A stretch of 64,000 nucleotides of DNA from a bacterium (GTDB lineage Bacteria > Hydrothermota > UBA3073 > JACQXS01 > JAGMCI01), in assembly GCA_030018315.1 (NCBI GenBank), contig JASEGA010000006.1, forward strand, positions 1,271-65,270, written 5' to 3'. Of the stretch, positions 20,742 to 53,839 are shown piece after piece. Below the pieces are notes generated by a model. It was not told the origin of the DNA, did not search any database, and saw nothing but the letters and a program-made list of their open reading frames with translations. Both the position numbers and the translations under genes were made by a program. Position 1 is the stretch's first letter. Each line of letters opens with the position of its first letter.

Positions 20742-20993
20742 TCAACTCATAGTGACCGCCTCGTATTTTCTCTCTTTAAGACTCCGTGCCTGCACCTCAA
20801 GATGCTTATACCGCTCAAAATCTGCAATATCCTCAACTACTCCTTCTTTCCATTTATACCTCCTTTTACTCAAACATATTAACAAAATTTCGTGAAGAGA
20901 AAACTTAGAGGTCTCACCTTTAATCCACACATCACTATCATTTTCTTGCTTCGTCATTCGACATTCGCCCTGAATCAAGTTCAGGGTCGTCAT
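20742..20993 (-). CDS. small hypothetical ORF coupled to the MCM stop (TAATG); doubtful
   Basis: 83 aa with no motif. Its 5' region overlaps a hairpin/heptamer-repeat element (20949-20986), so it may be non-coding. Confidence 0.25.
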   Translation of the reverse strand: MTTLNLIQGECRMTKQENDSDVWIKGETSKFSLHEILLICLSKRRYKWKEGVVEDIADFERYKHLEVQARSLKERKYEAVTMS

Positions 20994-25768: not shown

Positions 25769-27319
25769 TCATAACGGTATATTACCGTGCTTTCTTGCCG
25801 GATTTGTATCACGCTTGTTATCAGTTAACTCAAGTGCCTCAATTAGACGTGGCCTTGTATCCCTTGGCCTTATGACTTCGTCTATGTAGCCCTTACTCGC
25901 AGTTATGTATGGGTTAGCAAACTTCTCAGTATAATCAGATACAAGTTTACTCTCTAATGCTTTTGGGTCTTTAGCTTCTTTCAGCTCTTTTCTATAAAGT
26001 ATCTTAACTGCACCCTCGGGTCCCATAACTGCTATCTCACCAGTTGGCCATGCAAAGTTGACATCTGCCCTTGTATGCTTTGAACTCATAACACAGTATG
26101 CACCACCATAAGCTTTACGCGTTATCACAGTCATCCTTGGTACAGTTGCTTCACAGAATGCATAAAGGAGCTTAGCACCATTCTTTATTACACCACCCCA
26201 CTCCTGAGCAGTTCCTGGAAGGAAACCTGGCACATCTACAAATGTAACAATTGGTATATTAAAGCAGTCACAAAATCTGACAAACCTTGCCCCTTTTATT
26301 GCCGAATTTATATCAAGCACACCTGCAAGTACTGATGGCTGGTTTGCTACTATTCCTACAGACCTACCACCAAGTCTTGCAAACCCAATAATAATATTTT
26401 TAGCAAAGTGCGGTTGGACTTCAAAGAAGTCACCATCATCTACTACCTTTCTTATTATCTCGCTCATATCATAAGGCTTTATAGGACTATCTGGTACAAT
26501 ATTATCAAGTGCATCATCTATACGGTTCGGATCATCTCTACACTCAACTAAAGGTGGGTCTTCAAGATTATTTTGTGGTATATAGCTGAACAGCTTTTTA
26601 ATTAACTCTATACACTCCACTTCACTCTCTGCTGCAAAGTGCGCAACACCAGATTTCTCATTGTGGACCATAGCACCACCAAGCTCCTGAAATGTCACAT
26701 CCTCATGTGTAGCTGCCTTCACAACATCAGGGCCTGTCAAAAACATATAAGAAGTCTCCTTTACCATAAATACAAAGTCAGTTATAGCAGGTGAATAAAC
26801 TGCACCACCCGCACACGGTCCCATAATAGCAGAAATCTGTGGCACTACACCTGATGCAAGCACATTGCGTAAGAATACATCTGTGTAGCCTGCAAGACTA
26901 TCTACACCTTCCTGAATACGAGCACCACCTGAATCCTTTATCCCAATAATTGGACAGCCATTTTTCATCGCCATATCCTGTAGCTTACATATCTTTTCAG
27001 CATAAGCCTTAGAAAGTGAGCCACCAAATACAGTGAAGTCTTCCGAGAATATATACACTAACCTACCATTTATTTTGCCATAGCCAGTAACAACACCATC
27101 CCCGGGTATCTTTTTCTTGTCCATATCAAAGTCAGTACAGCGATGAGTGACAAACATATCAGTTTCTCTAAAACTGCCTTTATCAAGCAATAGGTCTATC
27201 CGCTCCCTTGCAGTAAGTTTACCAGCGGAATGTTGTTTATCTATTCTCTCTTTGCCACCACCAAGTAGAGCCTGCTTCTTAAACTCATCAAGCTCTTTAA
27301 GTTTATCATTTTCTTTCAT
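25769..27319 (-). CDS. acyl-CoA carboxyltransferase (propionyl-CoA carboxylase beta / methylmalonyl-CoA decarboxylase alpha type)
   Basis: 516 aa; the carboxyltransferase N- and C-domains are intact (GGARIQEG...; ...GGAYCVM...). Confidence 0.9.
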
Positions 27320-27569: not shown

Positions 27570-28121
27570 TTATCTCACAACAATTATTTTCTTTGTTATA
27601 CTTTTATTACCAGTAGTAAGCTTGCAAAAGTATACACCTGAGTCAACAAATTTTCCAGCTTCATCCTTACCATCCCAAGAAACAGCAGTGATTAGTAAGA
27701 AGTGATCAGTGATAAGTGGAAAAGACTTAACTAATCTACCAGCCAGATCATAGATTTGTAGTGTAGGGGTTTGATTAATCAAACCCCTACCTAATCCCTG
27801 AATCCTAATCACTGTTTTCCCACTGAATGGATTAGGATATACTTCTAACAATTCGTCATTCGTCATTCGGATTTCGGATTTTACCGTCTCTTCTACTCCA
27901 TAAGCATCAACCTTTATAAGATATACATCAGACTCTCCTGCCCCATATGACCAAGTAGATCCAGCTATAATATAGCCACCGTCTCTCGTCTGTGCCACTG
28001 AGTAACCGAAGTCCCAATGAGTTCCGCCATATGTCTTTTCCCAGCCAGCAGATACTACATTAGCCAAACCTGGTAACCCCAATATAGTCACTATTACAGC
28101 CTTAGCAATCAACCTTAACAT
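27570..28121 (-). CDS. small secreted repeat protein with a T9SS C-terminal sorting domain
   Basis: Signal peptide; YGGT.WDFGYSVAQTRDGGYIIAG repeat; C-terminal CTD VYPNPFSGKTVIRIQGLGRG... Confidence 0.7.
   Translation of the reverse strand: MLRLIAKAVIVTILGLPGLANVVSAGWEKTYGGTHWDFGYSVAQTRDGGYIIAGSTWSYGAGESDVYLIKVDAYGVEETVKSEIRMTNDELLEVYPNPFSGKTVIRIQGLGRGLINQTPTLQIYDLAGRLVKSFPLITDHFLLITAVSWDGKDEAGKFVDSGVYFCKLTTGNKSITKKIIVVR
27764..27789. repeat. second copy of the 26-bp perfect palindrome TAGGGGTTTGATTAATCAAACCCCTA
   Basis: Exact match to 25496-25521. Confidence 0.8.
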
Positions 28122-30171: not shown

Positions 30172-31785
30172 TTACCAGAATATCGGTGGCTCTTCGTATT
30201 CACCAAATTCTTCACGCAAGACATCACACATCTCACCAAGTGTAGCATAGACTCTGACAGCATCCAATATCTTAGGCATCAGATTATCACCACCCTTAGC
30301 TGCATCCCGTAATTCACGGAGTGTCTCCTTTACTTTAGTTGTGTTCCTTTCCTTCTTTAATTGCTTAAGACTTTCTATTTGTTGCTTTTCTACTTCGGGT
30401 GGTATCTTAAGTAGCTCTATCTTAGCTGGCTCTTCTTCTACGAACTCGTTTACACCTACAATTATTCGCTCTTTTTTTTCTATCTCTTTTTGGTACCTAT
30501 GTGCAGCTTTTGCTATCTCAAGCTGGAAGAAGCCTTTCTCAATTGCTGGAATCACTCCGCCAAGGGCAGAAATCTTATCAAAGTATTCATAGGCTTGGTG
30601 TTCTAATTTATTTGTTAATGCCTCAACATAATAAGAGCCACCAACTGGGTCTATAGTATTGGCAACACCTGTCTCGTATGCTATGAGTTGCTGTGTCCTC
30701 AGTGCTATTCTCACTGCCTTCTCTGTCGGTAAAGCATAAGTCTCATCCATTGAATTTGTATGCAAAGATTGAGTTCCACCTAAGACTGCAGAAAGTGCCT
30801 CAAATGCTGTCCTTATAATATTATTTTCAGGCTGTTGTGCAGTTAAAGTGCAGCCAGCTGTCTGTGTATGGAATCGCATAAGTAATGACCTTGTGTCTTT
30901 AGCCCCATATTTATTACGCATCTCCCTCGCCCATATACGACGGGCAGCTCTATACTTAGCAATCTCTTCAAAGAAGTCAATATGTGAATTGAAAAAGAAT
31001 GAAAGCCGAGGTGCAAACTTATCCACTGGAAGACCAGCCTTCATCCCATACTCTACATATGTAAACCCATTTGCTAAAGTAAAAGCAAGCTCTTGAGTAG
31101 CAGTTGAGCCTGCCTCCCTTATGTGATAACCGGAGATAGAAATAGTATTCCACTTTGGGACATAGTCTGAACAGTATGCGAGTATATCTGTAATAATACG
31201 CATAGAAGGCTCAGGTGGATATATCCATGACTTTTGTGCCTGATACTCTTTAAGGATGTCATTTTGGATAGTGCCTGTCAGGACTTCGGATGGTACACCT
31301 TGTTTCTCACCTACTACTATATACATAGCAAGTAGCATAGCAGCAGGTGCGTTTATAGTCATTGATGTAGAGATACGGTCAAGTGGTATACCATCAAATA
31401 TTATCTCCATATCACGAAGTGAGTCTACTGCTACACCACAACGGCCAACTTCACCCTGTGAGAGTGGGTGGTCTGAATCCCTGCCATAAAGGGTAGGAAA
31501 GTGAAATGCAACAGAGAGACCAGTCTGCCCCTTGCTTAATAAGTATTTGTATCTCTTATTTGTATCACGAGGAGTGCCGAAGCCAGAAAACTGACGCATC
31601 GTCCAAAGTCTGCCACAATACATTGTAGAATAGACACCTCTTGTAAACGGATACTCACCAGGGAAACCGAGTGCCTCCGTATAATCAAGGTCCTTAATAT
31701 CCTCTGGAGTATACAAAATTTTTACTGGCTCACCTGACACTGACTTAAATTGAGACCTCTTATCTTTTAGATTCTGTGTATCCAT
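30172..31785 (-). CDS. methylmalonyl-CoA mutase-family large subunit paralog (catalytic domain; MCM or ICM-like acyl-CoA mutase)
   Basis: 537 aa, ~65% identical to 20993-22576 over conserved blocks; it lacks the family-B insertion. Confidence 0.9.
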
Positions 31786-31796
31786 CTTTTCCTCCC

Positions 31797-31875
31797 GAGG
31801 AGATGCTTCACTACGCTTGCCCTGAGCCTGTTGAGATTCTTTCCTTCGCTACGCTCAGGATCAGAGTGACAGGCG
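31797..31875. repeat. family-B element (two tandem modules) in the 5' leader of the MCM paralog
   Basis: gaggagatgcttcactacgcttgccctgagcctgttgagattctttccttcgctacgctcaggatcagag, with CCTGAGC / GCTCAGG inverted arms. Confidence 0.7.
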
Positions 31876-32120
31876 AAAAGTTCAGCATGACATACATCAT
31901 TTTTACACCAAAAAACTCAAAAGTCAAGAAAAAGCTGCTTTGTTGAATAATTCACTTTACAAAACTTGCAACACCTTGATTGACACCGATTTATGAGATT
32001 CTTCACTTCGTTCAGAATGACAAGGTCAAAATTGTCTAAAACCGAGTCAAAGGTTGAAAATCAAAGGTGCCAAAAATATTTATTCAACAAAGCAAGAAAA
32101 AGCAAAAATTATCAAATTTA

Positions 32121-32148
32121 TTGACTTTTTGTAATGAGGTATTAAAAT
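32121..32148 (+). promoter_or_regulatory. sigma70-type promoter (TTGACT-16-TAAAAT) for the sensor kinase, possibly leaderless
   Basis: TTGACT at 32121-32126 and TAAAAT at 32143-32148. The ATG at 32156 lies ~8 nt past the -10, with no SD. Confidence 0.5.
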
Positions 32149-32155
32149 TAAGTTT

Positions 32156-33403
32156 ATGCCATATTTTATCGTTGCAGTTGGACTTGCTGTAGTAATTACT
32201 CTCCTATATCTTTTGCTCCGAAGATATACTCCAAAATTTAGGTCAAAATTGATACTCATTTTTATTTGTTTTTTGCTTATACCAACTATACCACTTACTT
32301 TCCTGACCTTAAATCTGCTTACGAGGAACATAGATGTGTGGTCAAACAAGAGAATAGTAAGTGCACTTGAAGACTCATTTACTATATCAGAAAAGCTTAA
32401 GGAGACACAAGGAGAGGAAGGATTAGATTTAAAGACAAGGAATAAAATACAAAACATAGTAGGGGTGCTTCAAATTGTAAAGCAGTTACAGTTGTTTAAA
32501 AAGTCGATTAAAGTAATACTATGGCTTTTATTTTCTGTCGGTGTGATTATGTTGGTTGTTGCAGGTGTAGTTATTGCTTCAAGACTGAGTAAAGGGATTG
32601 AAAGACCTATTCATAACTTAGTTCAGGGGACACAGAAAATTACACAAGGTGACTTTGGTTATCAAATTCCTGTAGAATCAAAAGACGAAATTGGGAATCT
32701 AACCGACTCCTTTAATAAGATGAGTAAGGACCTCGAGACACAGCGAGAAGCTCTTAAAACTACAGAGCGATTAAAAGCGTGGCAAGAGATAGCAAGAAGA
32801 GTATCACATGAGATAAAAAACCCACTCACTTCTATTGGAATTTCTATTGATAGGTTGACTCCAAATTTAAAAGAAGAAAGAGATAAGGAATGTTTAACTA
32901 CAATAAAAGAAGAGTTAGAAAATTTACGGCATCTTGCAACCGAATTCTCAGAATTTGCAAGAATGCCAGAGCCAAACTTTGTGCGATGTGATTTAAATGA
33001 GATTGTAAAGAGTGTAGTTGAGCTTTATAGTGGAGAGCAAAAAATAAAAGTGAATTACTTTAAAGATATTCCTGATATTTTTATTGATAAGAACGGTATT
33101 AGAAGGGTGCTTACAAATTTGATAAAAAATAGTATAGAAGCAGCTGGCCAGATATCTGTATCCACATCAGTGGATAACGAGTGGGCAATAGTTACAGTAG
33201 CCGATACCGGGAGTGGAATCTCAAAAGATGTTTTAGCTAAAATATTTGACCCCTATGTAACTACAAAATATAAAGGGACTGGACTTGGCTTCACTATAGC
33301 AAAAAAGATAATAGTAGACCATCAAGGAGAGATAACTATAAATTCAGAAGAAGGAAGAGGCACAATAGCAGTAGTTAAGTTACCAATAAAGAAGAAGGTC
33401 TAA
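32156..33403 (+). CDS. sensor histidine kinase (TM - HAMP - HisKA - HATPase)
   Basis: Two TM segments; H-box SHEIKNPLTSI; G1/G2 boxes (DTGSGI, GTGLGF). Confidence 0.85.
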   Translation: MPYFIVAVGLAVVITLLYLLLRRYTPKFRSKLILIFICFLLIPTIPLTFLTLNLLTRNIDVWSNKRIVSALEDSFTISEKLKETQGEEGLDLKTRNKIQNIVGVLQIVKQLQLFKKSIKVILWLLFSVGVIMLVVAGVVIASRLSKGIERPIHNLVQGTQKITQGDFGYQIPVESKDEIGNLTDSFNKMSKDLETQREALKTTERLKAWQEIARRVSHEIKNPLTSIGISIDRLTPNLKEERDKECLTTIKEELENLRHLATEFSEFARMPEPNFVRCDLNEIVKSVVELYSGEQKIKVNYFKDIPDIFIDKNGIRRVLTNLIKNSIEAAGQISVSTSVDNEWAIVTVADTGSGISKDVLAKIFDPYVTTKYKGTGLGFTIAKKIIVDHQGEITINSEEGRGTIAVVKLPIKKKV

Positions 33404-33407
33404 AAAC

Positions 33408-34781
33408 ATGGCAGTCCGTATTTTAGTTGTAGACGATGAACCTAATATCAGAAAATCTATAAAAGGATTACTTGAAGATAAAGGCTACGAACTCGAGACA
33501 GTTGCTACTGGTGAGGATGCACTTTTTTGTATAGAGAAAAACAACTTTGATATCGTCTTACTTGATATTGTCTTACCCGGAATTGATGGGATTCAGGTAC
33601 TTGAAAAGATTAAACAAAACAAACCTTATCTTCCTGTAGTTATGATTTCAGGTCAGGCTACAATTGATAATGCAGTAAAAGCGACTAAACTTGGTGCTTA
33701 CGATTTCTTAGAGAAACCAATAATAGGCGAAAAACTGCTACTCCTCATAACACATCTTCTTGAGCATGAAGGGCTTAAAAGACAGGTTGCCAAGCGATAC
33801 ACAATGGTTGGGTCAAGCAATGCCATAAAAAAACTTTACGAAGAGCTTAAAAGAGCTGCCCAATCCAATAGCCGTGTCCTTATTCATGGTGAGAGTGGCA
33901 CAGGCAAAGAACTTGTAGCTCGTGCTATACATGACTACAGTCCTCGAAAAACACAGCCTTTCATAACAGTAAATTGTGCTGCTCTCCCTAAAGAACTTAT
34001 AGAAAGCGAGCTTTTTGGCTACGAGAAGGGTGCATTTACAGGCGCTATTACAAAGAAAGAGGGTAAATTCATTTTAGCAAATACTGGCACTCTATTTTTG
34101 GATGAGGTAGGTGATATGAGTCTTGAGACACAAGCTAAGTTGTTGCGAGTGCTGGAAGAGGGTGAAATAGAGCCATTGGGTGGCAAAACGCCGATAAAAG
34201 TGGATGTAAGAGTTATCTCTGCTACTAACAAGAATCTGGAGTATGAGACTCAAAAAGGAAATTTCAGACAAGATCTACTCTTCAGAATAAATGTAATCCC
34301 TATTTTTGTGCCTCCGCTACGGGAGCGAATTGAGGATATAGGGATTCTATCTAAATATTTTATTAAGTTATTTTGTGAAGAAAACGGTAAACGGTCAAAA
34401 GATATAGAGTCAAGTGCTATAAAAGAACTTGAAAAATATAACTGGCCAGGTAATGTAAGGGAGTTAAAGAATCTTATGGAGCGTCTTGTAATTATGGTAC
34501 CCAGAGATACGATTACTGTAAACGATGTAGTCTCACTATCCCGACCTGTCGGGATAGGAAGCAAGGAAATGATTGTAGGGCAAGGCTTTAGCCTTGCAAA
34601 AAATGAAGAGTTGTCACTTCGGCAGAGAGTAGATAACTTTGAGCGCACACTTATCCAGCAAGCACTTATAGCAGCTGACTGGAATATTAAGAAGGCAGCA
34701 GCCATACTTAAAACTGACCGTGCTAACCTTTATCGTAAGATTAGAGAGTATGGTCTAACTGATTGTAGGGGTAATTCATGA
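33408..34781 (+). CDS. sigma54-dependent response regulator (NtrC family: REC - AAA+ - Fis HTH)
   Basis: ILVVDDE...D receiver; GESGTGKE Walker A; GAFTGA sigma54-contact motif; ELKNLMER; C-terminal HTH. Confidence 0.9.
   Translation: MAVRILVVDDEPNIRKSIKGLLEDKGYELETVATGEDALFCIEKNNFDIVLLDIVLPGIDGIQVLEKIKQNKPYLPVVMISGQATIDNAVKATKLGAYDFLEKPIIGEKLLLLITHLLEHEGLKRQVAKRYTMVGSSNAIKKLYEELKRAAQSNSRVLIHGESGTGKELVARAIHDYSPRKTQPFITVNCAALPKELIESELFGYEKGAFTGAITKKEGKFILANTGTLFLDEVGDMSLETQAKLLRVLEEGEIEPLGGKTPIKVDVRVISATNKNLEYETQKGNFRQDLLFRINVIPIFVPPLRERIEDIGILSKYFIKLFCEENGKRSKDIESSAIKELEKYNWPGNVRELKNLMERLVIMVPRDTITVNDVVSLSRPVGIGSKEMIVGQGFSLAKNEELSLRQRVDNFERTLIQQALIAADWNIKKAAAILKTDRANLYRKIREYGLTDCRGNS
34576..34598. 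repeat. family-D palindromic 23-mer (TAGGGCAAGGCTTTAGCCTTGCA), in frame within the NtrC linker
   Basis: An exact 23-nt match lies at 44431-44453 (intergenic). It encodes VGQGFSLA between the AAA+ and HTH domains. Confidence 0.75.
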
Positions 34782-35095
34782 ATTACCCCTATAACATTAG
34801 TGTCAGACTACAACACCTTTGTGTCAAATTGCTACACAAATAAAAGTTTTAGATACTCTTAAATATTTTACATAAAACACTAAAAACCCATCCCCACAAT
34901 AATTCAGGGAAATAGCTACCAAATTATTGCCCAAATGTCACAGAAGTTGCTATGTTAAGAAAGAGGGTGATTGTAATGAAGAAGAAGTTAGAAGTAGCGG
35001 CAGTTGGGATTGGAGGGTTAGTTCTTTATACCCTCGCTATGGGGATAATGCTTTTTATTAACGCACTAATATTGGTGCGTTAAAGGAGGTGAACT

Positions 35096-35386
35096 ATGTT
35101 TATATTAAAGAGATTTTGGTGGCTACCCGTTATCCTATTCCTATCAACTGGATTGGAGGGTCGTGCAATTAATCAGGATGTAGTTACTCAATCTATAAGG
35201 AATTGTGAGCTAAAGGATACAGGTGTTAGTGATAATGTAGATGGATGGGTTGGCTGTTCTATTGATAAGATAGAGTTTGACAAAAATAGACTCACTCTGA
35301 AGCAGAAGGTTGAACCAACAAAAGTAAGCTTAATGAAGTTTCTCTCTTACACTTTAAGTGGGGTAGTAATTTTTTTACTAATGTAG
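35096..35386 (+). CDS. small secreted protein; a paralogous duplication of the 5' end (RBS plus signal peptide) of the following Omp85 gene
   Basis: aaaggaggtgaac-ATGTTT and MF..KRFWWLPVILFLS mirror 35408-35470. Confidence 0.4.
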   Translation: MFILKRFWWLPVILFLSTGLEGRAINQDVVTQSIRNCELKDTGVSDNVDGWVGCSIDKIEFDKNRLTLKQKVEPTKVSLMKFLSYTLSGVVIFLLM

Positions 35387-35420
35387 AGGAGCAAAAGCAT
35401 CGTTTTAAAGGAGGTGAACA

Positions 35421-37613
35421 ATGTTTAGCTCAAATAAATTTTGGTGTCTAACCATTATCTTGCTTCTATCTAATACATTAAATGCAAAGGTTAGACAAGG
35501 GATAGCACAGTCTACAGGCAATGTTTATGTTGCCACTGAGGATACAATCAAAGGAGATGTTAGGTGTGAGGTAGGTAACATAGTTATCGATGGTGTGGTT
35601 GATGGTGATGTTGAATGTGAGATTGGTGAAGTGAAAGTCAATGGGATTGTGACTGGTGATGTAAGAGTTAAGGTTGGCGAGATTTATAATTATGGAGAAA
35701 TAATGGGTAATACTACAGTGTCTATTGGTGAGGTCTACGGAGCTGAAATCGAGGAAAAAGGAGATGTAAAAGCTGCTAAAAAAGTTTTAGAAGGTATAGC
35801 ATTCAATTTCCCGATAGTTAGCATAAAAGTGTCGGGTATGGTAAATGTTCCTGGGCAAGTAATTCGTGATACAATGGCTATACATATAGGTGATACCGTT
35901 GATATTGATAAACTGATAAGAACTAAAAAGAACATAGAGGCACTACAGTATTTCAAAACTGTAGCTCTTAATGTAGTCAGAGAAGACAAAGGTGTTAGAC
36001 TTGAGGTTAAAGTTGAAGAAAATCCTAAGATTGAGGAAGTAAAAATAGAGGGAAAGTCAGTATTTTCAACTGATGAGCTACTTAAAGAATTAGCAATCCC
36101 TATTGGGGAAGTGTTGAAAGGGAGTGTTGATGAGAAAAAGAGGGTCATTGAGTCAATGTATCACAAGCAAGGATATAAGTTAGCCAAGGTAACAACAGCT
36201 TGTGAAGGCGGGGTACTCACTTTTAAGATTGACGAAGGCTACATTGATAAGATAGAAATCACAGGGAATAAAAGGATATCTACCAAAGCCATTTTTGAGA
36301 CACTTGCTATAAAAGAGGGTGATTTATACAATGAGGATAAAGTCAAAGAAGCTGTGAAAAGATTAGAGGAACAATTTCCAGTAAAAGTGAGAGAAAAGCA
36401 TAAAGTGAAAGCATTAATTGAAGGAGGTAAAGAAGGAGAGGCTGTTGAGAGACATAAAGTAAAGGTATTTAAATTAGGGACTGGTGAAGAGGGAGAAGAG
36501 TCAATTGAGGAAGCTCTTAAATGTGTAAAGCATGAGAAAGGAGTAGAGAAGGCGTATACAATTTATGAGGAAAAAGGTAAAAATGTGCTAAGAATCCCTA
36601 TCGAAGAGAAAGACTTTGCAAAAACTGACTTTTTTGATTTAAGATACAACCGAGTTGAAGGCTTATGGTGGGCTGCTAATTTTGAGACAAGAACTTTTAT
36701 GCCTAATGATTGGAAGCTTAAAATTATGGGTGGCTATGCCTTCACTCCTAAGCTATGGGAATACAGAGGTAGCATAGAGAAGCCATTTTTCTATCCGCAT
36801 ACCTTTACTATCGGGGGTGAATATCGCAATATTGTAGATACACAGGATAGCTGGATTATCAGTGAGGGTGAAGAGACAGCATCATCATTTTTCTTAAACA
36901 GAGATTATTATGATTATTACACTAGACAAGGTGCTGGTATTTGGCTGTCACAGGTGGTGATTCCCAAGCACAAAGTAAAGATTGAATACAATGCAGACAA
37001 ATACGGAAACATTGAGGCAAGTGATGTATGGACTATGTTCAATAAGGACAGGCCTACACGCGAAAATCCACAAATTGATGAGGGCTATCTTAAAAGTATC
37101 GCTGTAGCTTATAGTTGTGAGATTGGTAATAAAACGCACAGTATAAAATCATGGATTGGAGTTGAAAAAGCAGGAGACCAGTTAGGTGGTGACTTTGAGT
37201 TCACTCGCTACATACTGGACTTACGAAGCTATAATGAATTATTTGCTTCTAATTTTCTTGACTTCCGAGTTAGAATAGGGTATTCTAATAATACATTACC
37301 TATGCAAAGGAGATTTTACCTTGGAGATGTTGGCACTTTACATGGCTACTACTATAAAGAGTTCTCTGGCAATACTATGTTTCTTGGTAACATAGAGTAT
37401 AGACTTGGGAGCAAGACACCTCAACTCGCCATTTTGGCTGATGCCGGTAATGCATGGGAGAGAGGGGGTGACTTTAGTTTATCCGAGTTAAAGCCAAGCA
37501 TTGGATTAGGGATTCAGAGTTATGGCGGCGGATTTAGAATCAGTGTACATAGACGACTGGATAAGGAAAATGCTCCTTTAATAACATATGTTAGGTTTAG
37601 TAAAACTTTTTAG
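35421..37613 (+). CDS. Omp85-family outer-membrane protein with an N-terminal bactofilin-like beta-helical repeat region and POTRA domains
   Basis: N-terminal GDVRCEVGNIVIDGVVDGDVECEIGEVKVNGIVTGDVRVKVGEI (G-x-V repeats); two or more POTRA-like segments; a C-terminal beta-barrel ending ...VRFSKTF (aromatic beta-signal). Confidence 0.6.
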   Translation: MFSSNKFWCLTIILLLSNTLNAKVRQGIAQSTGNVYVATEDTIKGDVRCEVGNIVIDGVVDGDVECEIGEVKVNGIVTGDVRVKVGEIYNYGEIMGNTTVSIGEVYGAEIEEKGDVKAAKKVLEGIAFNFPIVSIKVSGMVNVPGQVIRDTMAIHIGDTVDIDKLIRTKKNIEALQYFKTVALNVVREDKGVRLEVKVEENPKIEEVKIEGKSVFSTDELLKELAIPIGEVLKGSVDEKKRVIESMYHKQGYKLAKVTTACEGGVLTFKIDEGYIDKIEITGNKRISTKAIFETLAIKEGDLYNEDKVKEAVKRLEEQFPVKVREKHKVKALIEGGKEGEAVERHKVKVFKLGTGEEGEESIEEALKCVKHEKGVEKAYTIYEEKGKNVLRIPIEEKDFAKTDFFDLRYNRVEGLWWAANFETRTFMPNDWKLKIMGGYAFTPKLWEYRGSIEKPFFYPHTFTIGGEYRNIVDTQDSWIISEGEETASSFFLNRDYYDYYTRQGAGIWLSQVVIPKHKVKIEYNADKYGNIEASDVWTMFNKDRPTRENPQIDEGYLKSIAVAYSCEIGNKTHSIKSWIGVEKAGDQLGGDFEFTRYILDLRSYNELFASNFLDFRVRIGYSNNTLPMQRRFYLGDVGTLHGYYYKEFSGNTMFLGNIEYRLGSKTPQLAILADAGNAWERGGDFSLSELKPSIGLGIQSYGGGFRISVHRRLDKENAPLITYVRFSKTF

Positions 37614-37624
37614 AGGAGGGTAAG

Positions 37625-39391
37625 ATGAAAAGAGTGTATATTTTTATTCGCAGAATCCTGTGGATAAGTTTGCTTCTTATTTCTAACGTGATAGAGGCAA
37701 ACTCGAAAGGATTAGGTGATCCCAGCAAAGGGTTTGGTATGCTTAACCTTCAATTGAGGCAAATTTTTCAATCCGATAGGTTAGGATATGAGCCTGCCCC
37801 GACTTGTCGGGATTTGGCAATCTCACAGTATAAGGATGGCGATTATACTTTTAGCAAGAACATTCAGGTAAACGATGATCCAGCAGGTACAGCAGAGCAT
37901 TTCACAAAGATTGGAGGAGCTAATATCATTGTAGCACGTGGTGACACGCTATATATTGTGTGGTCAGATGCTCGTGAGGGTACAACTGGGTCACAGATTT
38001 ACTTTGCTAAAAGTATAAATGGTGGACAAAGTTTTCTACCAAATGTTAAAGTAGGCGATATGCCGCCAAATACAGCGATTATGTTTTTTCCTTCTATAGC
38101 AGTAGATGCTATTGGGAGAATCTATGTAGCATGGTCAGATTCAAGAAACTCATCAGGAGATACGGCTACTTTTGATATATATTTTGCAAAGAGTGATGAT
38201 GGTGGTTTGACTTTCAGCCAAAATAGATGTGTAACTGACACGAGTAGCAGAGAAATTCAGTATGGGGTGAGCATAGGAGTGGCTGGTGATAATGTTTACA
38301 TTGTATGGGCTGACGCGAGACACTGGGATGGTTCTGGTGACCCTAAATTTCATATCTATTCTGATAGAAGTAGAGATGGTGGACTCACATTTAGTAAAGA
38401 TATAAAAGTTGACGACTTTCCTGTTGACGTTCCGCCATACGGTGAGATTTTTCCATGTATTAATGTATTAGATGATACTGTATATGTTATATGGTCTCAC
38501 TTGAATTTAGATGCGTTGGAGTGCGACATTAGGCTTGACAAGAGCGTTGATGGTGGTGTGACATTTGGAACTGACATTAAGGTTACGGTATCTGGATTAG
38601 CGCAGATTTTCCCCTCTCTTACAATTGATAAGAATAGAGCCATCCACATAGCCTTTTATAATGTGAATCTTACAGGTCGCTGGCAGATTCTGTACGCAAA
38701 GAGTACAGATGGTGGTGCTTCATTTAGTCAAATTACGGAAGTTACAGATACAACATTTACTTATAATGGTATGAGTATAAATATAACTACTGATACAGAC
38801 TGCAACCCATATTGTGTGTGGGAAGACTTAAGAGAGTCACTGAACATTTCTCATCCATACTTTAGCTATAGCGATGATGGCGGTAATTCATTTAGCAAGA
38901 ATGTGCGAGTAGTGGATAAACCGGGTACAATAGGTGATGTTGACCAGTTTGGAGTTGGATTAGCAGTAGATGATAACAAAAATGTCTATGCAGTGTGGAG
39001 TGATAGACGCAACCATGCACAATGGTACGATATATATTTTGCTAAAGGAACACAAGCAGGAATAGAAGAGAGCCAAAGCTCAAAGCTCAACCCCGACCTT
39101 GTCGGGACAAAACTGGAAATCTATCCTACCCCATTTAGACAGACAACAAGTATCAGCTATCAATTGCCAGCAAGAGGTCGTATTTCACTAAAGGCTTACA
39201 ATTTAGCGGGTGGGTTAATTGAAGTACTGATAGATGATATAAGAGATTGTGGGACTCATACATTAGGATGGACTCCTGAAGGATTCTCAACTGGAGTATA
39301 TTTCTTGAGACTTGAGTTCTCTCCATTTTCACAAAAGGATGAGTTAGTCAATGACTTTGTAACCACAAAAAGGGTAGTGATACTGAAGTAA
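37625..39391 (+). CDS. BNR/Asp-box repeat (sialidase-like beta-propeller) protein with a T9SS C-terminal sorting domain
   Basis: Six or more S-x-D-G-G-x-T/S-F boxes (SINGGQSF, SDDGGLTF, SRDGGLTF, SVDGGVTF, STDGGASF, SDDGGNSF); C-terminal LEIYPTPFRQTTSISYQL... Confidence 0.75.
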   Translation: MKRVYIFIRRILWISLLLISNVIEANSKGLGDPSKGFGMLNLQLRQIFQSDRLGYEPAPTCRDLAISQYKDGDYTFSKNIQVNDDPAGTAEHFTKIGGANIIVARGDTLYIVWSDAREGTTGSQIYFAKSINGGQSFLPNVKVGDMPPNTAIMFFPSIAVDAIGRIYVAWSDSRNSSGDTATFDIYFAKSDDGGLTFSQNRCVTDTSSREIQYGVSIGVAGDNVYIVWADARHWDGSGDPKFHIYSDRSRDGGLTFSKDIKVDDFPVDVPPYGEIFPCINVLDDTVYVIWSHLNLDALECDIRLDKSVDGGVTFGTDIKVTVSGLAQIFPSLTIDKNRAIHIAFYNVNLTGRWQILYAKSTDGGASFSQITEVTDTTFTYNGMSINITTDTDCNPYCVWEDLRESLNISHPYFSYSDDGGNSFSKNVRVVDKPGTIGDVDQFGVGLAVDDNKNVYAVWSDRRNHAQWYDIYFAKGTQAGIEESQSSKLNPDLVGTKLEIYPTPFRQTTSISYQLPARGRISLKAYNLAGGLIEVLIDDIRDCGTHTLGWTPEGFSTGVYFLRLEFSPFSQKDELVNDFVTTKRVVILK

Positions 39392-39475
39392 AAGATACTT
39401 GAGGAGTAGCGAAAGTTTTTTAAACTCAATTTTTGTTATAAAGTTTACACAATCAAAAGTTTAGAAATTTAATAG

Positions 39476-40111
39476 GTGAGTAGTATACTATTTACAGTTT
39501 CCTTTATTATTTTACAAAGTGGTGCACAAAATCCAAATATATCCATCGTTATTACACAATCTAAAAAGGAAGTATTTGTTAATCTTGAAATAGATAATTT
39601 ATTCACTTATGAGATACTTGAGGGTATAAACAGAGGGTTTACTTCCTGCATTGAGTATACAGTGGATTTGTGGTGGGATAGAGCCCTATGGCTTGACCAG
39701 CTGATACAGCGAAAGGAGTTTGCTTTTTTTATAAATTATAACCTGTGGGATAAAGAATACAAGGTAACGGATATTTATGGAGCCATTAATAGGTTTACTA
39801 ATTTTACTGATGTATTGGATAAAGTATGTGTGCAACCCAATGTCAATATTTGTGCAACTAATATATTGGACATTAATAAGACTTATTATGTAGCAGCAAG
39901 AATTGTCCTAAAGCCTTTGGTGACCGAAGACTTAAATGAGATGCTTAGTTATGCGATGGGTGAAATACGGGAAGCAAGAAAAAAGGAGAAGACGAGTCTA
40001 TTTACATACCTTATAGGACAGGCGAGAAATTTTGTAGGCTTAGGAGATAAAGTAATTACGGGAAAAAGTGAACCAATCAAAGTAACTCAAGAAGAGAAAC
40101 ATAGTAACTAA
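39476..40111 (+). CDS. hypothetical secreted protein
   Basis: 211 aa with an N-terminal hydrophobic segment; no catalytic motif recognised. Confidence 0.35.
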   Translation: MSSILFTVSFIILQSGAQNPNISIVITQSKKEVFVNLEIDNLFTYEILEGINRGFTSCIEYTVDLWWDRALWLDQLIQRKEFAFFINYNLWDKEYKVTDIYGAINRFTNFTDVLDKVCVQPNVNICATNILDINKTYYVAARIVLKPLVTEDLNEMLSYAMGEIREARKKEKTSLFTYLIGQARNFVGLGDKVITGKSEPIKVTQEEKHSN

Positions 40112-40360: not shown

Positions 40361-40415
40361 GAGATGCTTCACAGAGCCTGCCCTGAGCCAATCCGCCTGA
40401 GGCGGAGAAGGGTTC
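40361..40415. repeat. family-B element copy in a convergent intergenic region
   Basis: gagatgcttcacagagcctgccctgagccaatccgcctgaggcggagaagggttcag, including the CCGCC-TGA-GGCGG hairpin. Confidence 0.7.
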
Positions 40416-40756: not shown

Positions 40757-41872
40757 ATGGAGCTAACTCAGGAACAAAAGCTTATCCAAGATATGGTAAG
40801 AAAATTTGCATCATCTGAACTACTCCCAGTAGTAGCAGAACTTGACAAAAGTGCTACTTATCCACATGAGATAATTAAAAAGCTTGCCGAACTCGGCTTC
40901 CTTGGAATAACTATACCTGAAAAGTACGGTGGTGCTAATCTTGATACGGTCAGTTACTGTATAATTATTGAGGAATTGTCAAGAATTTTTGGCTCAATTG
41001 GGACAATCCTTATAGTAAATAATGCACTTGTAGCTTATCCTATCCTTAAGTATGGCAATGAAGGACAAAAGAGTCAATGGCTTACTCCACTTGCAAAAGG
41101 TGATATTATAGGCGCATTTGCAATTACAGAGGGGACAGGTTTTAACTTCTCTGATATAGAAACTAAAGCAACTAAAATTAATAATGGATATGGAATTTCA
41201 GGCAAAAAGGATTTTATCCCAAATGCTGAGGCTGCAAAGCTATTTGTCATATTTGCGAATACTGAAAATGGGGTAACTGCTTTCCTTGTTGATAGGGAGA
41301 GTGCAGGACTTAAGGTAACTGAAAAAGAAGATACACTCGGTATAAGGTCAGCCGGTATATGTAATTTAGAATTCAATGAACTTAAAGTTAGTGCCAATGC
41401 TATACTTGGCAAGGAAGGCGATGGCTTAAAGATAAGCGAAGAAGCAATTAATCTTGCAAGTATTGGAACAGGGGCACAAGCAGTAGGAATTGGACAGGCA
41501 GCACTTGATGACTCTATAAAATATTCTAAAGAACGACACCAGTTTGGTCGTCCAATATGTGAGTTCCAACTCGTCCAGGATATGCTTATAGAGATGAAAA
41601 TAAAGGTAGAGGCTGCAAGGCTACTCGTATACGATACTGCTATTAAATGTGACTCAGGTAGTAGCTTTGGACAAGATGCCGCTATTGCAAAATTATTTGC
41701 TACAGATGCAGCTATGGTTGCAGGAATCAAGTCAATACAGGTATATGGTGGTTATGGATATACAAAGGATTACCCAGTAGAACGATACTTTAGGGATGCA
41801 AAGGTTATACAAGTATGGGGTGAGTCTTCAATAGCACAAAAGATTAAAATAGCAAAAGCATTGCTAGAATAA
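40757..41872 (+). CDS. acyl-CoA dehydrogenase family protein (divergent paralog)
   Basis: 371 aa; ACAD fold with atypical active-site-region motifs (FAITEGTGFNFSD in place of EPGAGSD; VWGESSIAQ). Confidence 0.8.
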   Translation: MELTQEQKLIQDMVRKFASSELLPVVAELDKSATYPHEIIKKLAELGFLGITIPEKYGGANLDTVSYCIIIEELSRIFGSIGTILIVNNALVAYPILKYGNEGQKSQWLTPLAKGDIIGAFAITEGTGFNFSDIETKATKINNGYGISGKKDFIPNAEAAKLFVIFANTENGVTAFLVDRESAGLKVTEKEDTLGIRSAGICNLEFNELKVSANAILGKEGDGLKISEEAINLASIGTGAQAVGIGQAALDDSIKYSKERHQFGRPICEFQLVQDMLIEMKIKVEAARLLVYDTAIKCDSGSSFGQDAAIAKLFATDAAMVAGIKSIQVYGGYGYTKDYPVERYFRDAKVIQVWGESSIAQKIKIAKALLE

Positions 41873-42049
41873 AAATCAAATTGATTTTTGATTTTGAGGG
41901 ACGGGTAGTCCTGTTATATTATCACGATACTCAGTAGACACCATAAAGAGTTCCAAGAAAAAGTAAGAAGATTTGCTCAAGAGGAATTAGCCCCAAGAGC
42001 ACAAGAAATTGATAAAAAAGGAGAATTTCAGTTTGATATTTTTAAGCGG

Positions 42050-43078
42050 ATGGCTGAATTAAACCTTTTAGGGATACCTATTCCTAAAAAGTATGGTGGT
42101 GCAGGGCTTGACACACTTTCTTATACTATTGCTGTAGAAGAGGTAGGACGTGTCTGTGGCTCTACAGGGATAACACTTGCTGCTCATACATCACTTGGCT
42201 GTTATCCAATTTATATTGCTGGAAATGAAGGCCAGAAGAAGAAATGGCTTATCCCATTAGCAAAGGGTGAAAAGATAGGCTCATTTGGACTTACTGAGCC
42301 AAATGCAGGCTCAGATGCTGCTGCTACTGAAACTACTGCAAAACTTGAGGGTAACAAATACATAATAAATGGGACTAAAAGATTCATAACATCGGGTGCG
42401 ATAGCAGATATAATAGTATTTACTGCTACACAGGACCGCTCAAAAGGAGTGCACGGTATATCTGCATTTGTAGTTGAGAAAGGGACACCCGGATTCTCAG
42501 CAGGTAAAGAAGAGGATAAACTTGGGCTACGTGGCTCAGTTACTTCTGAACTTATATTTGAAGATTGTGCAATTCCGTGTAAAAACTTGCTCGGTAAAGA
42601 GGGTGATGGCTTCAAAATATTTATGCAAACACTTGATGGCGGTAGAATATCAATAGGCGCACTTGGAATTGCACAGGGAGCGCTTGATGCCTGCATTGAA
42701 TATGTGAAAGAAAGTAAGCCCTCTAACCTGCCTAGCCAAGTCAAGGTGGGTAAACCACTGTATAAATCACAATTCGTTCGAGGTAGAATAGCTGATATGG
42801 TAACAGAGATTGAGGCGGCACGTGGTCTAATTTACAATGCAGCTATACTTAAAGACAGCGGGAAACCGTATACTAAAGAAGCGGCTATGTCGAAACTATA
42901 CGCATCAGAGGTTGGGATGAGAGCTACAACTATGGCAGTTGAGTTACATGGGATAATGGGACTTACAAAGAAATACGAAGTAGAGCGATTTATGCGAGAT
43001 GTTAAGCTTATGGAGATTGGAGAAGGGACATCTGAAATACAGCGTGTAGTCATTGCAAGAGAAATACTGGGTAAATGA
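42050..43078 (+). CDS. acyl-CoA dehydrogenase (the conserved N-terminus extends upstream to ~41909 without a canonical start codon)
   Basis: The frame is open and homologous from 41909 (…HHKEFQEKVRRFAQEELAPRAQEIDKKGEFQF…), with no ATG/GTG/TTG before 42050. EPNAGSD and YEGTSEIQ-like motifs are present. Confidence 0.85.
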   Translation: MAELNLLGIPIPKKYGGAGLDTLSYTIAVEEVGRVCGSTGITLAAHTSLGCYPIYIAGNEGQKKKWLIPLAKGEKIGSFGLTEPNAGSDAAATETTAKLEGNKYIINGTKRFITSGAIADIIVFTATQDRSKGVHGISAFVVEKGTPGFSAGKEEDKLGLRGSVTSELIFEDCAIPCKNLLGKEGDGFKIFMQTLDGGRISIGALGIAQGALDACIEYVKESKPSNLPSQVKVGKPLYKSQFVRGRIADMVTEIEAARGLIYNAAILKDSGKPYTKEAAMSKLYASEVGMRATTMAVELHGIMGLTKKYEVERFMRDVKLMEIGEGTSEIQRVVIAREILGK

Positions 43079-43090
43079 AAAGGGGGGAAG

Positions 43091-44233
43091 ATGAATTTTG
43101 ATTTAACTGCTGACCAGAAGATGCTACAGGAGACAGTGAGAAAGTTTGCTAAGACAGAACTTGAGCCTGTAGCAGCTGAACTGGACAAGACACAGGAGTT
43201 TCCGTGGCTGAATATTAAGAAGCTTGCTAAACTTGGGCTACTTGGTGTGATAGTGCCAGAAAAGTATGGGGGTGCAGGATTTGACTTTGTATCTCTTGCA
43301 ATAGCGATTGAAGAGATATCAAGAGTTTGTGCCACTACAGGCGTGATTGTAGCAGTCAATAACTCACTTACTGCGTATCCTATTTATCAATTTGGGAATG
43401 AAGAACAAAGAAATAAGTGGCTACCCCCACTATGCAAAGGTGAAAAACTTGGTGCTATCGGGATAACTGAGCCAAATGCAGGCTCTGATGTTGCGAGTAT
43501 GGAGTCAACTGCAAGACTTGACGGCAATTCCTATATACTTAATGGGACAAAGAGATTCATTACAAATGCAGGTGAGGCAGGTATATTTGTTGTCTTTGCG
43601 TATACTAATAAAGAAATGAAACACAAAGGAATAAGTGCATTTGTAGTTGAACGGGATACACCAGGATTTACACTCGGAAAGCACGAAGACCTTATGGGTA
43701 TACGAGCAACTGCTAACTGTGAACTTATCTTTGAAGATGCTAAGATACCAAAAGAAAACTTACTTGGTAAAGAAGGTAATGGCTTCAAGATATGTATGCA
43801 TACACTTGATGTGTCAAGAATAGACATAGGAGCGCAAGCAGTAGGCATAGCTCAAGGTGCGCTTGATTCAGCACTGAGCTATTCAAAAGAGCGTAGGGCT
43901 TTTGGTCAGCCAATATGTGAGTTTGAGATGGTCCAGTCAATGCTTGCTGATATGGCAACACAGATACAGGCGGCAAGGTTACTTGTGTATTATGCGGGCT
44001 TCTGTAAAGATAAAGGGATGCCAAGATTCTCAAAAGAAGCCTCTATGGCAAAATGGTTTGCATCTGAGGCTGCAGTGAATGTCACAAGAAAGGCAGTCCA
44101 AATCTATGGCGGCTATGGATATACTAAAGATTATCCGGTAGAGCGATACTATCGTGATGCTAAGATACTTGAGCTTTATGAAGGGACATCAGAGATACAA
44201 AAGATAGTGATTGCAAGAGACTTGTTAAAATAA
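43091..44233 (+). CDS. acyl-CoA dehydrogenase (short/branched-chain type)
   Basis: 380 aa; MNFDLTADQKMLQETVRKFA...; TEPNAGSDVASM; LYEGTSEIQKIVIARDLLK. Confidence 0.9.
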   Translation: MNFDLTADQKMLQETVRKFAKTELEPVAAELDKTQEFPWLNIKKLAKLGLLGVIVPEKYGGAGFDFVSLAIAIEEISRVCATTGVIVAVNNSLTAYPIYQFGNEEQRNKWLPPLCKGEKLGAIGITEPNAGSDVASMESTARLDGNSYILNGTKRFITNAGEAGIFVVFAYTNKEMKHKGISAFVVERDTPGFTLGKHEDLMGIRATANCELIFEDAKIPKENLLGKEGNGFKICMHTLDVSRIDIGAQAVGIAQGALDSALSYSKERRAFGQPICEFEMVQSMLADMATQIQAARLLVYYAGFCKDKGMPRFSKEASMAKWFASEAAVNVTRKAVQIYGGYGYTKDYPVERYYRDAKILELYEGTSEIQKIVIARDLLK

Positions 44234-48965: not shown

Positions 48966-50111
48966 TTAGTTTCCATTTAACATAACTAATTTCTTGAAGC
49001 TAATGGACTTCCCAGTCTCTAACTTACAGAAGTAAATGCCTGATGCAACTCTATTCCCAAAATCATCCTCTCTATTCCAAACAACCGTGTATACTTCCGT
49101 GTTCTCCTTCTTATCTATTAGAGTTTTTACCAATCTACCAGCCATATCATACACTCTTACACTAACTGGCATTTTAGGAGTCCCATTTAGGATTTGGAAT
49201 CTGATTTCTGTCATTTGAGCAAATGGATTAGGATAGACTTCAAGTTTTGGGTTTTCTTTCACTCCCACATAGGGGTCAGTATTAGTAAATTCATATATGC
49301 TGCCATTTCTATGTGTAGCATAGATTCGGTTTGTATCATCATTTCTACCTCTACCAACAGTCAAATCAGCAGACGCACCTGTAACAGCGTCAACAACAGT
49401 GTCAACCCATGCACTACCATCCCATGAGTGCTCACGGATATTACCAAATTGTGCTGTAGTGTATACTCGTATTTTACTGTTTTTACTGTCACTCTTTGTT
49501 CTACCAAGCCATAATCCGTAACGGCTGAGCATAGGCGCACTTGGGCATATGTCAACCTGTTGCCAATTCCCTGCAGAGTATGTGAGTTCATAAACATACC
49601 CCCCTCCACAAGAAACATAAACTCTGTTCACTAAATCATTCCTACCAGAGCCAACAGCTGCTTTACACAACCGATACGAGGGTAAAGTGATGACTGACTC
49701 CTCATAATAGGAGCTATTCCAACTGTACTCTCTGAGGTATGGAGAATGCCCATCAGGACAATAGACTCTATTCATATCATACCATCGTTTCGTCCATTCC
49801 CCAATTGCAACTGCTGCAAAAGCTGTATAGGGAGGACCCAAATTAGCCTTTAAATAAGTCCATTCGTATATATGACCATTGAACCCCGATACATACACCC
49901 TTTGTATACCATCATTTCTACCATCTCCCACCACTTGGTAAAGCCAACCAGGGCATGTCCCTATTCTTACTGCGTTCCAACCACACCATACGCAATTGAA
50001 GAGAGTAACAACTGATATCATCGCTATCAATATCAACATGAGCATCCTCCTTCCTGCCTTGACGCGAGGCAGACGAGACAGGAACTCACTCATTGTGCTA
50101 AACTTTTTCAT
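48966..50111 (-). CDS. repeat (VG.GRND...RVY...G.IYE.TY) beta-propeller-like secreted protein with a T9SS C-terminal sorting domain
   Basis: Four internal repeats; C-terminal LEVYPNPFAQMTEIRFQ...FCKLETGK. Confidence 0.65.
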   Translation of the reverse strand: MKKFSTMSEFLSRLPRVKAGRRMLMLILIAMISVVTLFNCVWCGWNAVRIGTCPGWLYQVVGDGRNDGIQRVYVSGFNGHIYEWTYLKANLGPPYTAFAAVAIGEWTKRWYDMNRVYCPDGHSPYLREYSWNSSYYEESVITLPSYRLCKAAVGSGRNDLVNRVYVSCGGGYVYELTYSAGNWQQVDICPSAPMLSRYGLWLGRTKSDSKNSKIRVYTTAQFGNIREHSWDGSAWVDTVVDAVTGASADLTVGRGRNDDTNRIYATHRNGSIYEFTNTDPYVGVKENPKLEVYPNPFAQMTEIRFQILNGTPKMPVSVRVYDMAGRLVKTLIDKKENTEVYTVVWNREDDFGNRVASGIYFCKLETGKSISFKKLVMLNGN

Positions 50112-53836: not shown

Positions 53837-53839
53837 CGA

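Follow-up and report, generated by a model that had tools for sequence, protein, structure and literature searches.

A candidate envelope signalling module: a two-component system with a predicted sigma-54 operon for a bactofilin-like Omp85 paralog and a PlrP-like DUF4390 protein

Background

Does an NtrC-type two-component system (TCS) control the envelope genes that lie directly behind it, and what would such a system do? This question is raised by a locus at positions 32156-40111 of a 64-kb stretch of DNA (64,000 nucleotides of contig JASEGA010000006.1, assembly GCA_030018315.1, from a bacterium of the GTDB lineage Hydrothermota; the whole stretch is called the window hereafter), in which a sensor histidine kinase (HK) and a sigma-54-dependent response regulator (RR) are followed by an Omp85-type outer-membrane protein, a BNR-repeat protein and a small exported protein. 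An initial annotation of the sequence had recognised the regulatory pair and the barrel protein, had called the bactofilin-like N-terminus of the latter an uncommon fusion, and had left regulation by the adjacent NtrC as unproven.

We rate the chances as slightly better than even that this locus encodes a conserved, self-regulating envelope signalling and response module, consisting of the TCS, its predicted sigma-54 operon and a feedback on the kinase. In such a module the membrane-bound HK would phosphorylate the NtrC-family RR, which would bind the tandem TGT-N9-11-ACA sites at 34800-34838 and activate a sigma-54 promoter at 34936-34950. This promoter would drive an operon for a 35-aa inner-membrane peptide, a 96-aa duplicate, the Omp85 paralog, a variable insert (here a BNR protein that may be a cargo of the type IX secretion system, T9SS) and a protein of the DUF4390 family. 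By analogy with PlrP of Bordetella, the exported DUF4390 protein would feed back on the kinase/phosphatase balance of HK, and the small membrane peptide would be another candidate for feedback, of the kind known from MgrB. The Omp85 paralog would be either the effector induced in the outer membrane or the end point there of a sensing chain.

Results

Gene content and gene order of the locus

The HK gene (32156-33403, + strand) encodes a protein of 415 aa with three predicted transmembrane (TM) segments and a loop (residues 55-116, about 60 aa) in the periplasm, followed by HAMP (6.9e-13), HisKA (1.1e-9) and HATPase_c (6.8e-26) domains in Pfam. The RR (33408-34781, + strand, 457 aa) matches Response_reg (1.4e-30), Sigma54_activat (5e-72) and HTH_8 (7.4e-10). 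Its AAA+ domain is complete and its sequence contains GESGTGKE and GAFTGA; with a REC domain, a sigma-54 AAA+ domain carrying GAFTGA and a Fis-type helix-turn-helix (HTH) it belongs to the NtrC family in the broad sense, and the NtrC-type pair of the initial annotation is thus borne out by the Pfam domains of both proteins. At the level of NCBIfam equivalogs the RR stays below the cut-offs for NtrC (442.8 vs 558.6 bits) and NtrX (416 vs 600 bits). The HK likewise reaches no equivalog cut-off, its best match being the LIC_11548 family (216 vs 750 bits), and the Pfam/NCBIfam scan gave no PAS or NtrY_N match for it. A near-perfect palindrome of 16+16 nt (TTGTAGGGGTAATTCA / TGAATTACCCCTATAA, 34763-34794), which has no T-tract, covers the RR stop codon just 5' of the first enhancer-like site.

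After an intergenic region of 195 nt the RR gene is followed, all on the + strand, by an ORF of 35 aa (34976-35083), an ORF of 96 aa (35096-35386), the Omp85 paralog of 730 aa (35421-37613), the BNR/Asp-box beta-propeller protein of 588 aa (37625-39391) and the DUF4390 protein of 211 aa, which has a GTG start (39476-40111). The gaps after the 35-aa ORF measure, gene by gene, 12, 34, 11 and 84 nt.

Five family loci were compared, namely the window, L001 (identical to L002 and L039), L003, L004 (identical to L005 and L041) and L006. The HK, the sigma-54 RR, the position of the small ORF, Omp85 and DUF4390 stand in the same order and on the same strand in the window, L001, L004 and L006, so that HK-RR-Omp85-DUF4390 synteny holds in four of the five independent loci, at an Omp85 identity of 34-48%. 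The orthologous kinases of L004 and L006 have a periplasmic loop that is about 130 aa longer; L001 has an HK ortholog as well. No gene lies between Omp85 and DUF4390 in L001, L004 and L006, and in L003 this interval holds proteins with PspC/LiaF-TM and LiaF-TM/Toastrack domains. PspC, LiaF and Toastrack have been linked to envelope stress (PMC11237479), and their genes in the putative L003 operon point to envelope stress. The spacer between RR and promoter in L003 is unusually long (515 nt) and contains a repeat of about 30 nt, CCTGTTGATCTTGTTAATCCTGTCAAAGATT, twice (at about 2465-2495 and 2665-2695).

Beyond these five loci, the distant, GC-rich locus L036 (3-3551) has in a row a sigma-54 activator, a POTRA-less bactofilin-plus-barrel protein (P0012) and a divergent DUF4390 protein, which is sub-threshold in Pfam (3.5e-4, 20.5 bits) and aligns in hhalign with 82% and E 1e-5. 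In L042 DUF4390 (57 bits) comes right after the 3' end of an Omp85 gene. With DUF4390 as the query, protein searches returned the same small subfamily only, and the gain from a metagenome scan was limited to L040 (truncated at its 5' end), L042 and further copies of L001 and L004. The loci L007-L035, obtained in a genome scan, were rejected as members of the module, since they hold ordinary BamA-like genes or distant relatives and have neither DUF4390 nor the small peptide; so was L037 (P0006, a CBM9/POTRA member), which has no adjacent TCS or DUF4390.

A sigma-54-type promoter and tandem enhancer-like sites

The initial annotation reported no sigma-54 promoter. This holds for the exact sequence TGGCAC-N5-TTGC, of which there is none in the 64-kb window, but not for a site with one mismatch, TGTCACAGAAGTTGC (TGTCAC-AGAAG-TTGC; 34936-34950, + strand), in which a T replaces the second G at -24 and which lies 25 nt 5' of the 35-aa ORF, the first gene 3' of it. 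Its position is conserved across the related loci: the orthologous sites are TGTCATACATATTGC in L001, TGTCACGGATGTTGC in L003 and TGGCACAGAATTTGC in L004 and L006, the last being canonical and identical to the window site at 13 of 15 positions. Across the five family loci the distance from the promoter to the ATG of the small ORF is 25-41 nt. In L038, a locus with a more distant barrel gene, TGTCGT-N5-CAGC stands 26 nt before the ATG of a peptide ORF. The L036 candidate AGGCAC-N5-GTTC, 22 nt before the ATG, lacks the GC at -12, and no claim is made for it. A second sigma-54 promoter, this one canonical (TGGCACGAAAATTGC), is present in L001 (13462-13476, equal to L039 9495-9509) about 0.9 kb 3' of DUF4390; it precedes a gene for a regulator with REC and AraC-type HTH domains and two large proteins with T9SS C-terminal domains (CTDs).

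Further upstream of the window promoter are two tandem enhancer-like sites (upstream activating sequences, UAS), GTGTCAGACTACAACA and TGTGTCAAATTGCTACACA (34800-34838, + strand), which are 21 bp apart from start to start and lie 135 and 114 bp 5' of the -24 element. All five family loci have a pair of TGTCA-N5-7-ACA sites, with a spacing of 21-22 bp and at a distance of 69-135 bp from the -24 element. A search for the composite pattern GTGTCA-N6-AACA-N4-5-TGTGTCA gave a single match in the window, where 0 were expected, and a single one per family locus, in each case at the orthologous position; the 34 other loci gave none. As this pattern was derived from the same loci, its value lies in its exact conservation and uniqueness, and not in an independent prediction. 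The simple palindrome GTGTCA-N3-TGACAC was rejected as a specific element, since its 20 occurrences in the window are about what chance would give (19.7 expected). The intergenic DNA of L036 contains TGTCG repeats and an inverted repeat GTGTCGA…TCGACAC, which resemble the TGTCA sites.

Regulation of the adjacent operon by the RR through the predicted promoter and UAS has good comparative support, and the earlier verdict of 'unproven' is to be revised to this extent, promoter and enhancer-like sites being kept in five loci.

The DUF4390 protein and its likeness to PlrP

The protein at the end of the locus had been listed as a secreted hypothetical. Its export-type hydrophobic N-terminus stands, and it is no longer hypothetical: with E 4.7e-12 and 46.1 bits vs a gathering score of 27 it is a member of DUF4390 (PF14334). 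Its start aligns with M1 of the homologs, and the N-terminus is hydrophobic in all five of them. The distance from the end of the RR gene to this gene is 4.7 kb in the window (same strand), 2.3-2.6 kb in L001, L004 and L006, and 5.2 kb in L003.

A member of this family in Bordetella was named PlrP by Wolber et al. 2026 (PMC13001219), who added it as a third component to PlrSR, a system of the NtrYX type. The plrP homologs of beta- and gamma-proteobacteria almost always adjoin ntrYX-type genes, and genetics point to PlrP as a brake on the phosphatase activity of PlrS, probably via the periplasmic PDC domain of this kinase (PMC13001219). As in PlrP-PlrS-PlrR, an export-type DUF4390 protein is encoded in the window on the same strand as a HAMP-type kinase with its regulator and only a few kb away from them, and this colocalisation is conserved across relatives. 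Unlike in Bordetella, the DUF4390 gene of the window stands 3' of the TCS and behind Omp85 rather than directly 5' of the kinase, and rsmB is not among its neighbours. Moreover, the RR of the window has the complete sigma-54 AAA+ domain that is missing in beta-proteobacterial NtrX (PMC13001219), the kinase is without PAS and PDC domains, and the host is a non-proteobacterial-looking metagenome-assembled genome with T9SS cargo proteins.

The small membrane peptide and the 96-aa ORF

The 35-aa ORF at 34976-35083, which was not in the gene list of the initial annotation, encodes a peptide (MKKKLEVAAVGIGGLVLYTLAMGIMLFINALILVR) with a basic N-terminus followed by a single TM segment. It matches no Pfam family. 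By profile comparison (E 1e-14 to 1e-17) it has homologs in the corresponding position of L003, L004 and L006, and 5' of a distant bactofilin-barrel gene in L038 (P0015, Longimicrobiales; 5077-6974), where the TM peptide has 43 aa. In L001 the ORF at this position is unrelated and not hydrophobic, and the L001 Omp85 has no beta-helix. The resemblance to MgrB-PhoQ is that of a single-TM peptide of 31-43 aa whose gene comes first in the operon of its own regulon. The two peptides differ in that they have no sequence relationship, in that the window-type peptide co-varies with the Omp85 beta-helix (both are absent in L001), and in that contact with the kinase would, for the window peptide, be an analogy only. 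A hairpin at 35058-35083 (TTAACGCACTAAT / ATTGGTGCGTTAA) spans the end and the stop codon of the 35-aa ORF, directly 5' of the strong ribosome-binding site (RBS) of the 96-aa ORF, and may have a role in translational coupling or RNA processing.

The 96-aa ORF, for which a start at 35070 had been given, actually starts at 35096. It is a degenerate duplicate of the 5' end of the Omp85 gene: a direct repeat of 75 nt (35080-35154 / 35405-35479, 77% identical) includes the RBS TTAAAGGAGGTGAAC, the ATG and the signal peptide, and the encoded protein matches Omp85 residues 1-74 in BLASTP (E=1e-6), including the first beta-helix rungs, before it ends in a new hydrophobic C-terminus. A Cys pair 17 residues apart is kept as well (C37/C54, 35204-35206 and 35255-35257, corresponding to C49/C66 of Omp85). 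The initial annotation had considered promoter, RBS and signal peptide to be duplicated; RBS and signal peptide are, but since only 16 nt 5' of the ATG are shared, the promoter was not copied. No homolog of the 96-aa ORF was found in any other locus, nor a Pfam match, and it was rejected as a conserved gene and is considered lineage-specific.

The Omp85 paralog and its bactofilin-like domain

The Omp85 protein begins with a signal peptide (residues 1-22, ending in TLNA, with KV after the cleavage site), followed by a predicted bactofilin-like beta-helix (about 28-105; 35502-35735), a helix (114-123), three POTRA domains (131-396; 35811-36608), which are interrupted by a disordered insert at 326-376, and the barrel (400-725; 36618-37595). 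In Pfam the POTRA match extends over three stretches (2.5e-22), and the barrel is matched in part (1.9e-9, 37.9 bits vs a cut-off of 24). An AlphaFold2 (AF2) model with a mean predicted local distance difference test (pLDDT) of 77.6 has 16 barrel strands and three beta-alpha-alpha-beta-beta POTRA units, and in Foldseek it matched BamA, TamA and Toc75 with E-values from about 1e-26 (2e-26) to 1e-20. The earlier assignment as an Omp85/POTRA beta-barrel is therefore confirmed. The protein misses the BamA equivalog TIGR03303 (106.2 vs 297 bits) and has three POTRA rather than five, and since a separate, canonical BamA is encoded in the window (53840-56176, 778 aa; Omp85 4.7e-44, POTRA 4e-49, four or more POTRA), it is an accessory paralog. 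This BamA gene, the housekeeping copy, lies directly 3' of a YceG/MltG gene (52868-56176 for both). In the L6 motif (V/I/L)RG(F/Y), for which P0002 and the wider family have the consensus LRGY, the window protein reads LHGY; the Arg is likewise His in P0004 and P0005, and it is Met in P0003. The residues D674 and G676 of the FxDxG type in strand 13 are conserved, and the C-terminus is aromatic (…KTF).

The N-terminal domain was likened to bactofilins in the initial annotation, and this stands, as hidden Markov models (HMMs) did not reassign it to POTRA or another common domain. In a scan of the whole protein Pfam Bactofilin (PF04519) matches residues 26-98 with E=7e-5 and 23.4 bits, under the gathering score of 27.9; when the domain is scanned alone the match reaches 28.5 bits (E=1.8e-6), above it. 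Among the N-terminal domains of the family, 24 of 26 match Bactofilin at E<=0.01, and a profile of the domain has as its top two PDB matches the bactofilins 6RIA (1e-4) and 2N3D (1.5e-3). The repeat period read in the sequence is 17 residues (G45, G62, G79, G96), and in the AF2 model residues 28-105 form short strands throughout (pLDDT 77-91). Cysteines C49 and C66 (35565-35567 and 35616-35618) are exactly one period apart on adjacent rungs, which fits an oxidising compartment and makes a disulfide between rungs of an exported domain a likely possibility. In the proposed module the beta-helix would be periplasmic. This pair is kept in P0002 and absent in P0004 and P0005.

Bactofilins are cytoplasmic, membrane-associated polymers. 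The domain shares with them (PF04519; BacA 2N3D, Thermus 6RIA) the profile similarity, a winding of about 17 residues, G-[DN]-V motifs and a predicted all-beta ladder, and differs from them in being preceded by a cleavable signal peptide and in forming one polypeptide with an outer-membrane barrel.

To what extent the fusion is uncommon depends on the comparison. A word-indexed homology search returned only four close Omp85 homologs (34-48% identity), of which P0003 has no beta-helix. A search with the barrel only, against 1.84 billion cluster representatives, gave 1,571 matches at E<=1e-3, a number that falls to 693 at 1e-10 and to 116 at 1e-30; most are proteins of 480-600 aa with an N-terminal region of 160-250 aa and no POTRA. 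The N-terminal HMM of the window subfamily matches 69 of the 148 best barrel cluster representatives, about half, and the majority of these carriers have no POTRA. Among 85 representatives scanned with Pfam, 84 match Omp85, 68 DUF5686, 15 Bactofilin, 14 ShlB, 11 POTRA, 7 CBM9_1 and 5 Toastrack DUF4097. Judged by these matches the bactofilin-like domain is a common partner of this barrel, and the window form with three inserted POTRA is rarer. The fusion is thus uncommon with respect to the published Omp85 classification, which has no such class (PMC4104836), but not in nature.

In that classification the 'BamA-like' class is always additional to a genuine BamA (Heinz & Lithgow 2014; PMC4104836). 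The window protein is like this class and TamA in its POTRA (one to three in the class), its 16-strand barrel, its occurrence beside a true BamA and its fold matches to BamA and TamA. Unlike them, it has an exported bactofilin-like beta-helix before the POTRA, and its barrel belongs to a separate large family that also matches DUF5686 and is mostly POTRA-less; it also has no TamB/DUF490 partner, and its L6 Arg is replaced by His.

Discussion

Points that weigh against the module

A number of observations speak against a self-regulating module of the kind proposed. In L003 the shared gene order begins only with the RR, next to which no kinase gene was seen, and in L038 the peptide and barrel genes have no TCS or DUF4390 beside them. 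With one mismatch allowed, the promoter motif matches three times in the window against 2.8 expected in 64 kb, so that a single site is not above chance and the argument is a positional and comparative one. The GG at -24 is conserved in the sigma-54 consensus TGGCAC-N5-TTGC, and the window, L001 and L003 read GT; the site may therefore be weak or need an unusual RpoN. No rpoN gene lies within the window. The DUF4390 gene, 84 nt behind the BNR gene, could have its own promoter instead of belonging to the predicted operon. As to feedback, the HK is not an NtrY equivalog and its loop of only about 60 aa contains no PDC domain, the proposed target of PlrP in Bordetella; an AF2 model of DUF4390 built from four sequences has a pLDDT of 44 and gives no structural support for any interaction.

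Alternative explanations

The best-placed alternative, which we nevertheless regard as unlikely, holds that the Omp85 paralog is a type Vd-like autotransporter whose own barrel exports the beta-helix to the surface as an adhesin or array, as PlpD and FplA do with their patatin domain, with the TCS only regulating its expression and DUF4390 being a periplasmic helper or regulator. Passengers of type V secretion systems are typically beta-helices. The window protein combines, as PlpD and FplA do, an N-terminal passenger-like domain, POTRA and a 16-strand Omp85-type barrel in one polypeptide, and the succession of signal peptide, beta-helical domain, POTRA and barrel is the type Vd order; most family members likewise show the autotransporter order of signal peptide, beta-helix, linker and barrel. 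The TpsB-type ShlB model is among the Pfam matches of the family representatives (the 14 of 85 given above), and the Cys pair on adjacent rungs, in fitting an oxidising compartment, agrees with this alternative too. It is weakened by the three POTRA, as opposed to one in type Vd, by a link of only about 25 residues between beta-helix and POTRA1, and by the tiny passenger of about 80 aa, a beta-helix instead of the patatin lipase, with no patatin (Pfam) or other effector domain. L6, moreover, closes barrels of the BamA type.

A rather doubtful second possibility is that the Omp85 paralog serves as a sensor of the state of the outer membrane, binding or threading DUF4390 as BamA does RcsF, so that a perturbation would free periplasmic DUF4390 to switch the kinase. 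The immediate neighbourhood of Omp85 and DUF4390 in L001, L004, L006, L036 and L042 would fit this, as would the envelope-stress genes inserted in L003 and the action on a kinase, from the periplasmic side, that DUF4390 has in other systems (PMC13001219). The proposal is an analogy with the BamA-RcsF precedent; PDB 6T1W is among the fold matches, but only as BamA. Beta- and gamma-proteobacterial PlrP works without a dedicated Omp85 (PMC13001219), and the DUF4390 model is unusable at its pLDDT. Equally doubtful in our estimate is the wider form of this idea, in which Omp85 and DUF4390 would constitute a trans-envelope sensing device, possibly with end-to-end beta-helix contacts and the inner-membrane peptide, such that the state of the outer membrane sets TCS activity.

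Least probable of all is a specialised BAM/TAM-like insertase or translocase for inducible cargo such as the BNR protein or other outer-membrane proteins, with the beta-helix used for periplasmic docking or oligomerisation and DUF4390 and peptide as mere regulators, for although three POTRA with a 16-strand barrel beside a true BamA recall the TamA/'BamA-like' class (PMC4104836) and the aromatic C-terminus and D674/G676 are kept, the conserved L6 Arg is lost in the window, P0003, P0004 and P0005, the neighbouring cargo genes are not conserved, and the T9SS-type tail of the BNR protein points to a different export route.

The BNR protein and the setting of the locus

The BNR protein had been described as carrying a T9SS CTD. 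Five Asp-boxes of the form S-x-D-G-G-x-(T/S)-F and one variant can be read in its sequence, and BNR_2 matches in Pfam at 4.2e-7 and 30.0 bits, below the gathering score of 31.4. The CTD remains under the HMM thresholds (Por_Secre_tail, PF18962: 0.015, 16 vs 27 bits; TIGR04183: 15.5 vs 23 bits), and a type A T9SS CTD is plausible by motif alone (IYPTPF…GVYFLRL). The BNR repeats of the earlier description thus stand, and the CTD is reduced to a motif resemblance. As the gene is not found between Omp85 and DUF4390 in L001, L003, L004 and L006, it is, judged by gene content, a variable, lineage-specific insert outside the conserved module. Two other window proteins (27570-28121 and 48966-50111, both on the - strand) have T9SS CTDs above the Pfam threshold, at 35.3 and 38.2 bits, one of them with a fucose-lectin-like propeller; a type IX secretion system is therefore very likely in this organism.

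Up to about 31.8 kb every long ORF of the window is encoded on the - strand, and beyond 32.1 kb the + strand carries most of them. At about 31786-32155 the GC skew changes from about -0.25 to about +0.25 and the cumulative skew has its minimum; no DnaA boxes were seen there by eye, and the switch near 32 kb is probably a coding-strand effect. A REP-like interspersed element (GAGATGCTTCAC…GCCCTGAGCC), whose 12-nt core has 6 matches in the window vs 0.7 expected, has copies at 31800-31828, 31995-32023, 40361-40389 and, on the - strand, 21151-21162; three of these lie in the intergenic DNA that flanks the HK-to-DUF4390 block on both sides. The neighbouring genes comprise two methylmalonyl-CoA mutase-like genes, one carboxyltransferase and three acyl-CoA dehydrogenase-like ORFs (20993-22576, 25769-27319 and 30172-31785 on the - strand, 40757-44233 on the + strand), a propionate/acyl-CoA metabolism neighbourhood that has no relation to the finding. 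Rfam and tRNA scans of the whole window gave no matches.

Conclusions

All components of this locus belong to known families; their combination, and the bactofilin-Omp85 architecture, are undescribed, and a literature search returned no paper that combines bactofilin with Omp85 or bactofilin with Toastrack. The only paper in which sigma-54, Omp85 and two-component terms occur together was a general review on Burkholderia. The GT that recurs at -24, in a sigma-54 promoter whose other positions are well conserved, is a minor peculiarity that lends itself to testing. PlrP/DUF4390 was recognised as the third component of NtrYX only in 2026 and only in proteobacteria, and is found here in a different conserved context, behind a dedicated Omp85 and under predicted sigma-54 control, with testable partners. 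Moreover, a large uncharacterised Omp85 subfamily, represented by the 693 barrel relatives at E<=1e-10, commonly bears an exported bactofilin-like domain, which is unexpected for a fold known from cytoplasmic polymers. If Omp85 and DUF4390 did form a sensing device, this would give the PlrP-family proteins a mechanistic role, and it would define a new, widespread class of Omp85 proteins in which the 'cytoskeletal' bactofilin fold works outside the cytoplasm.

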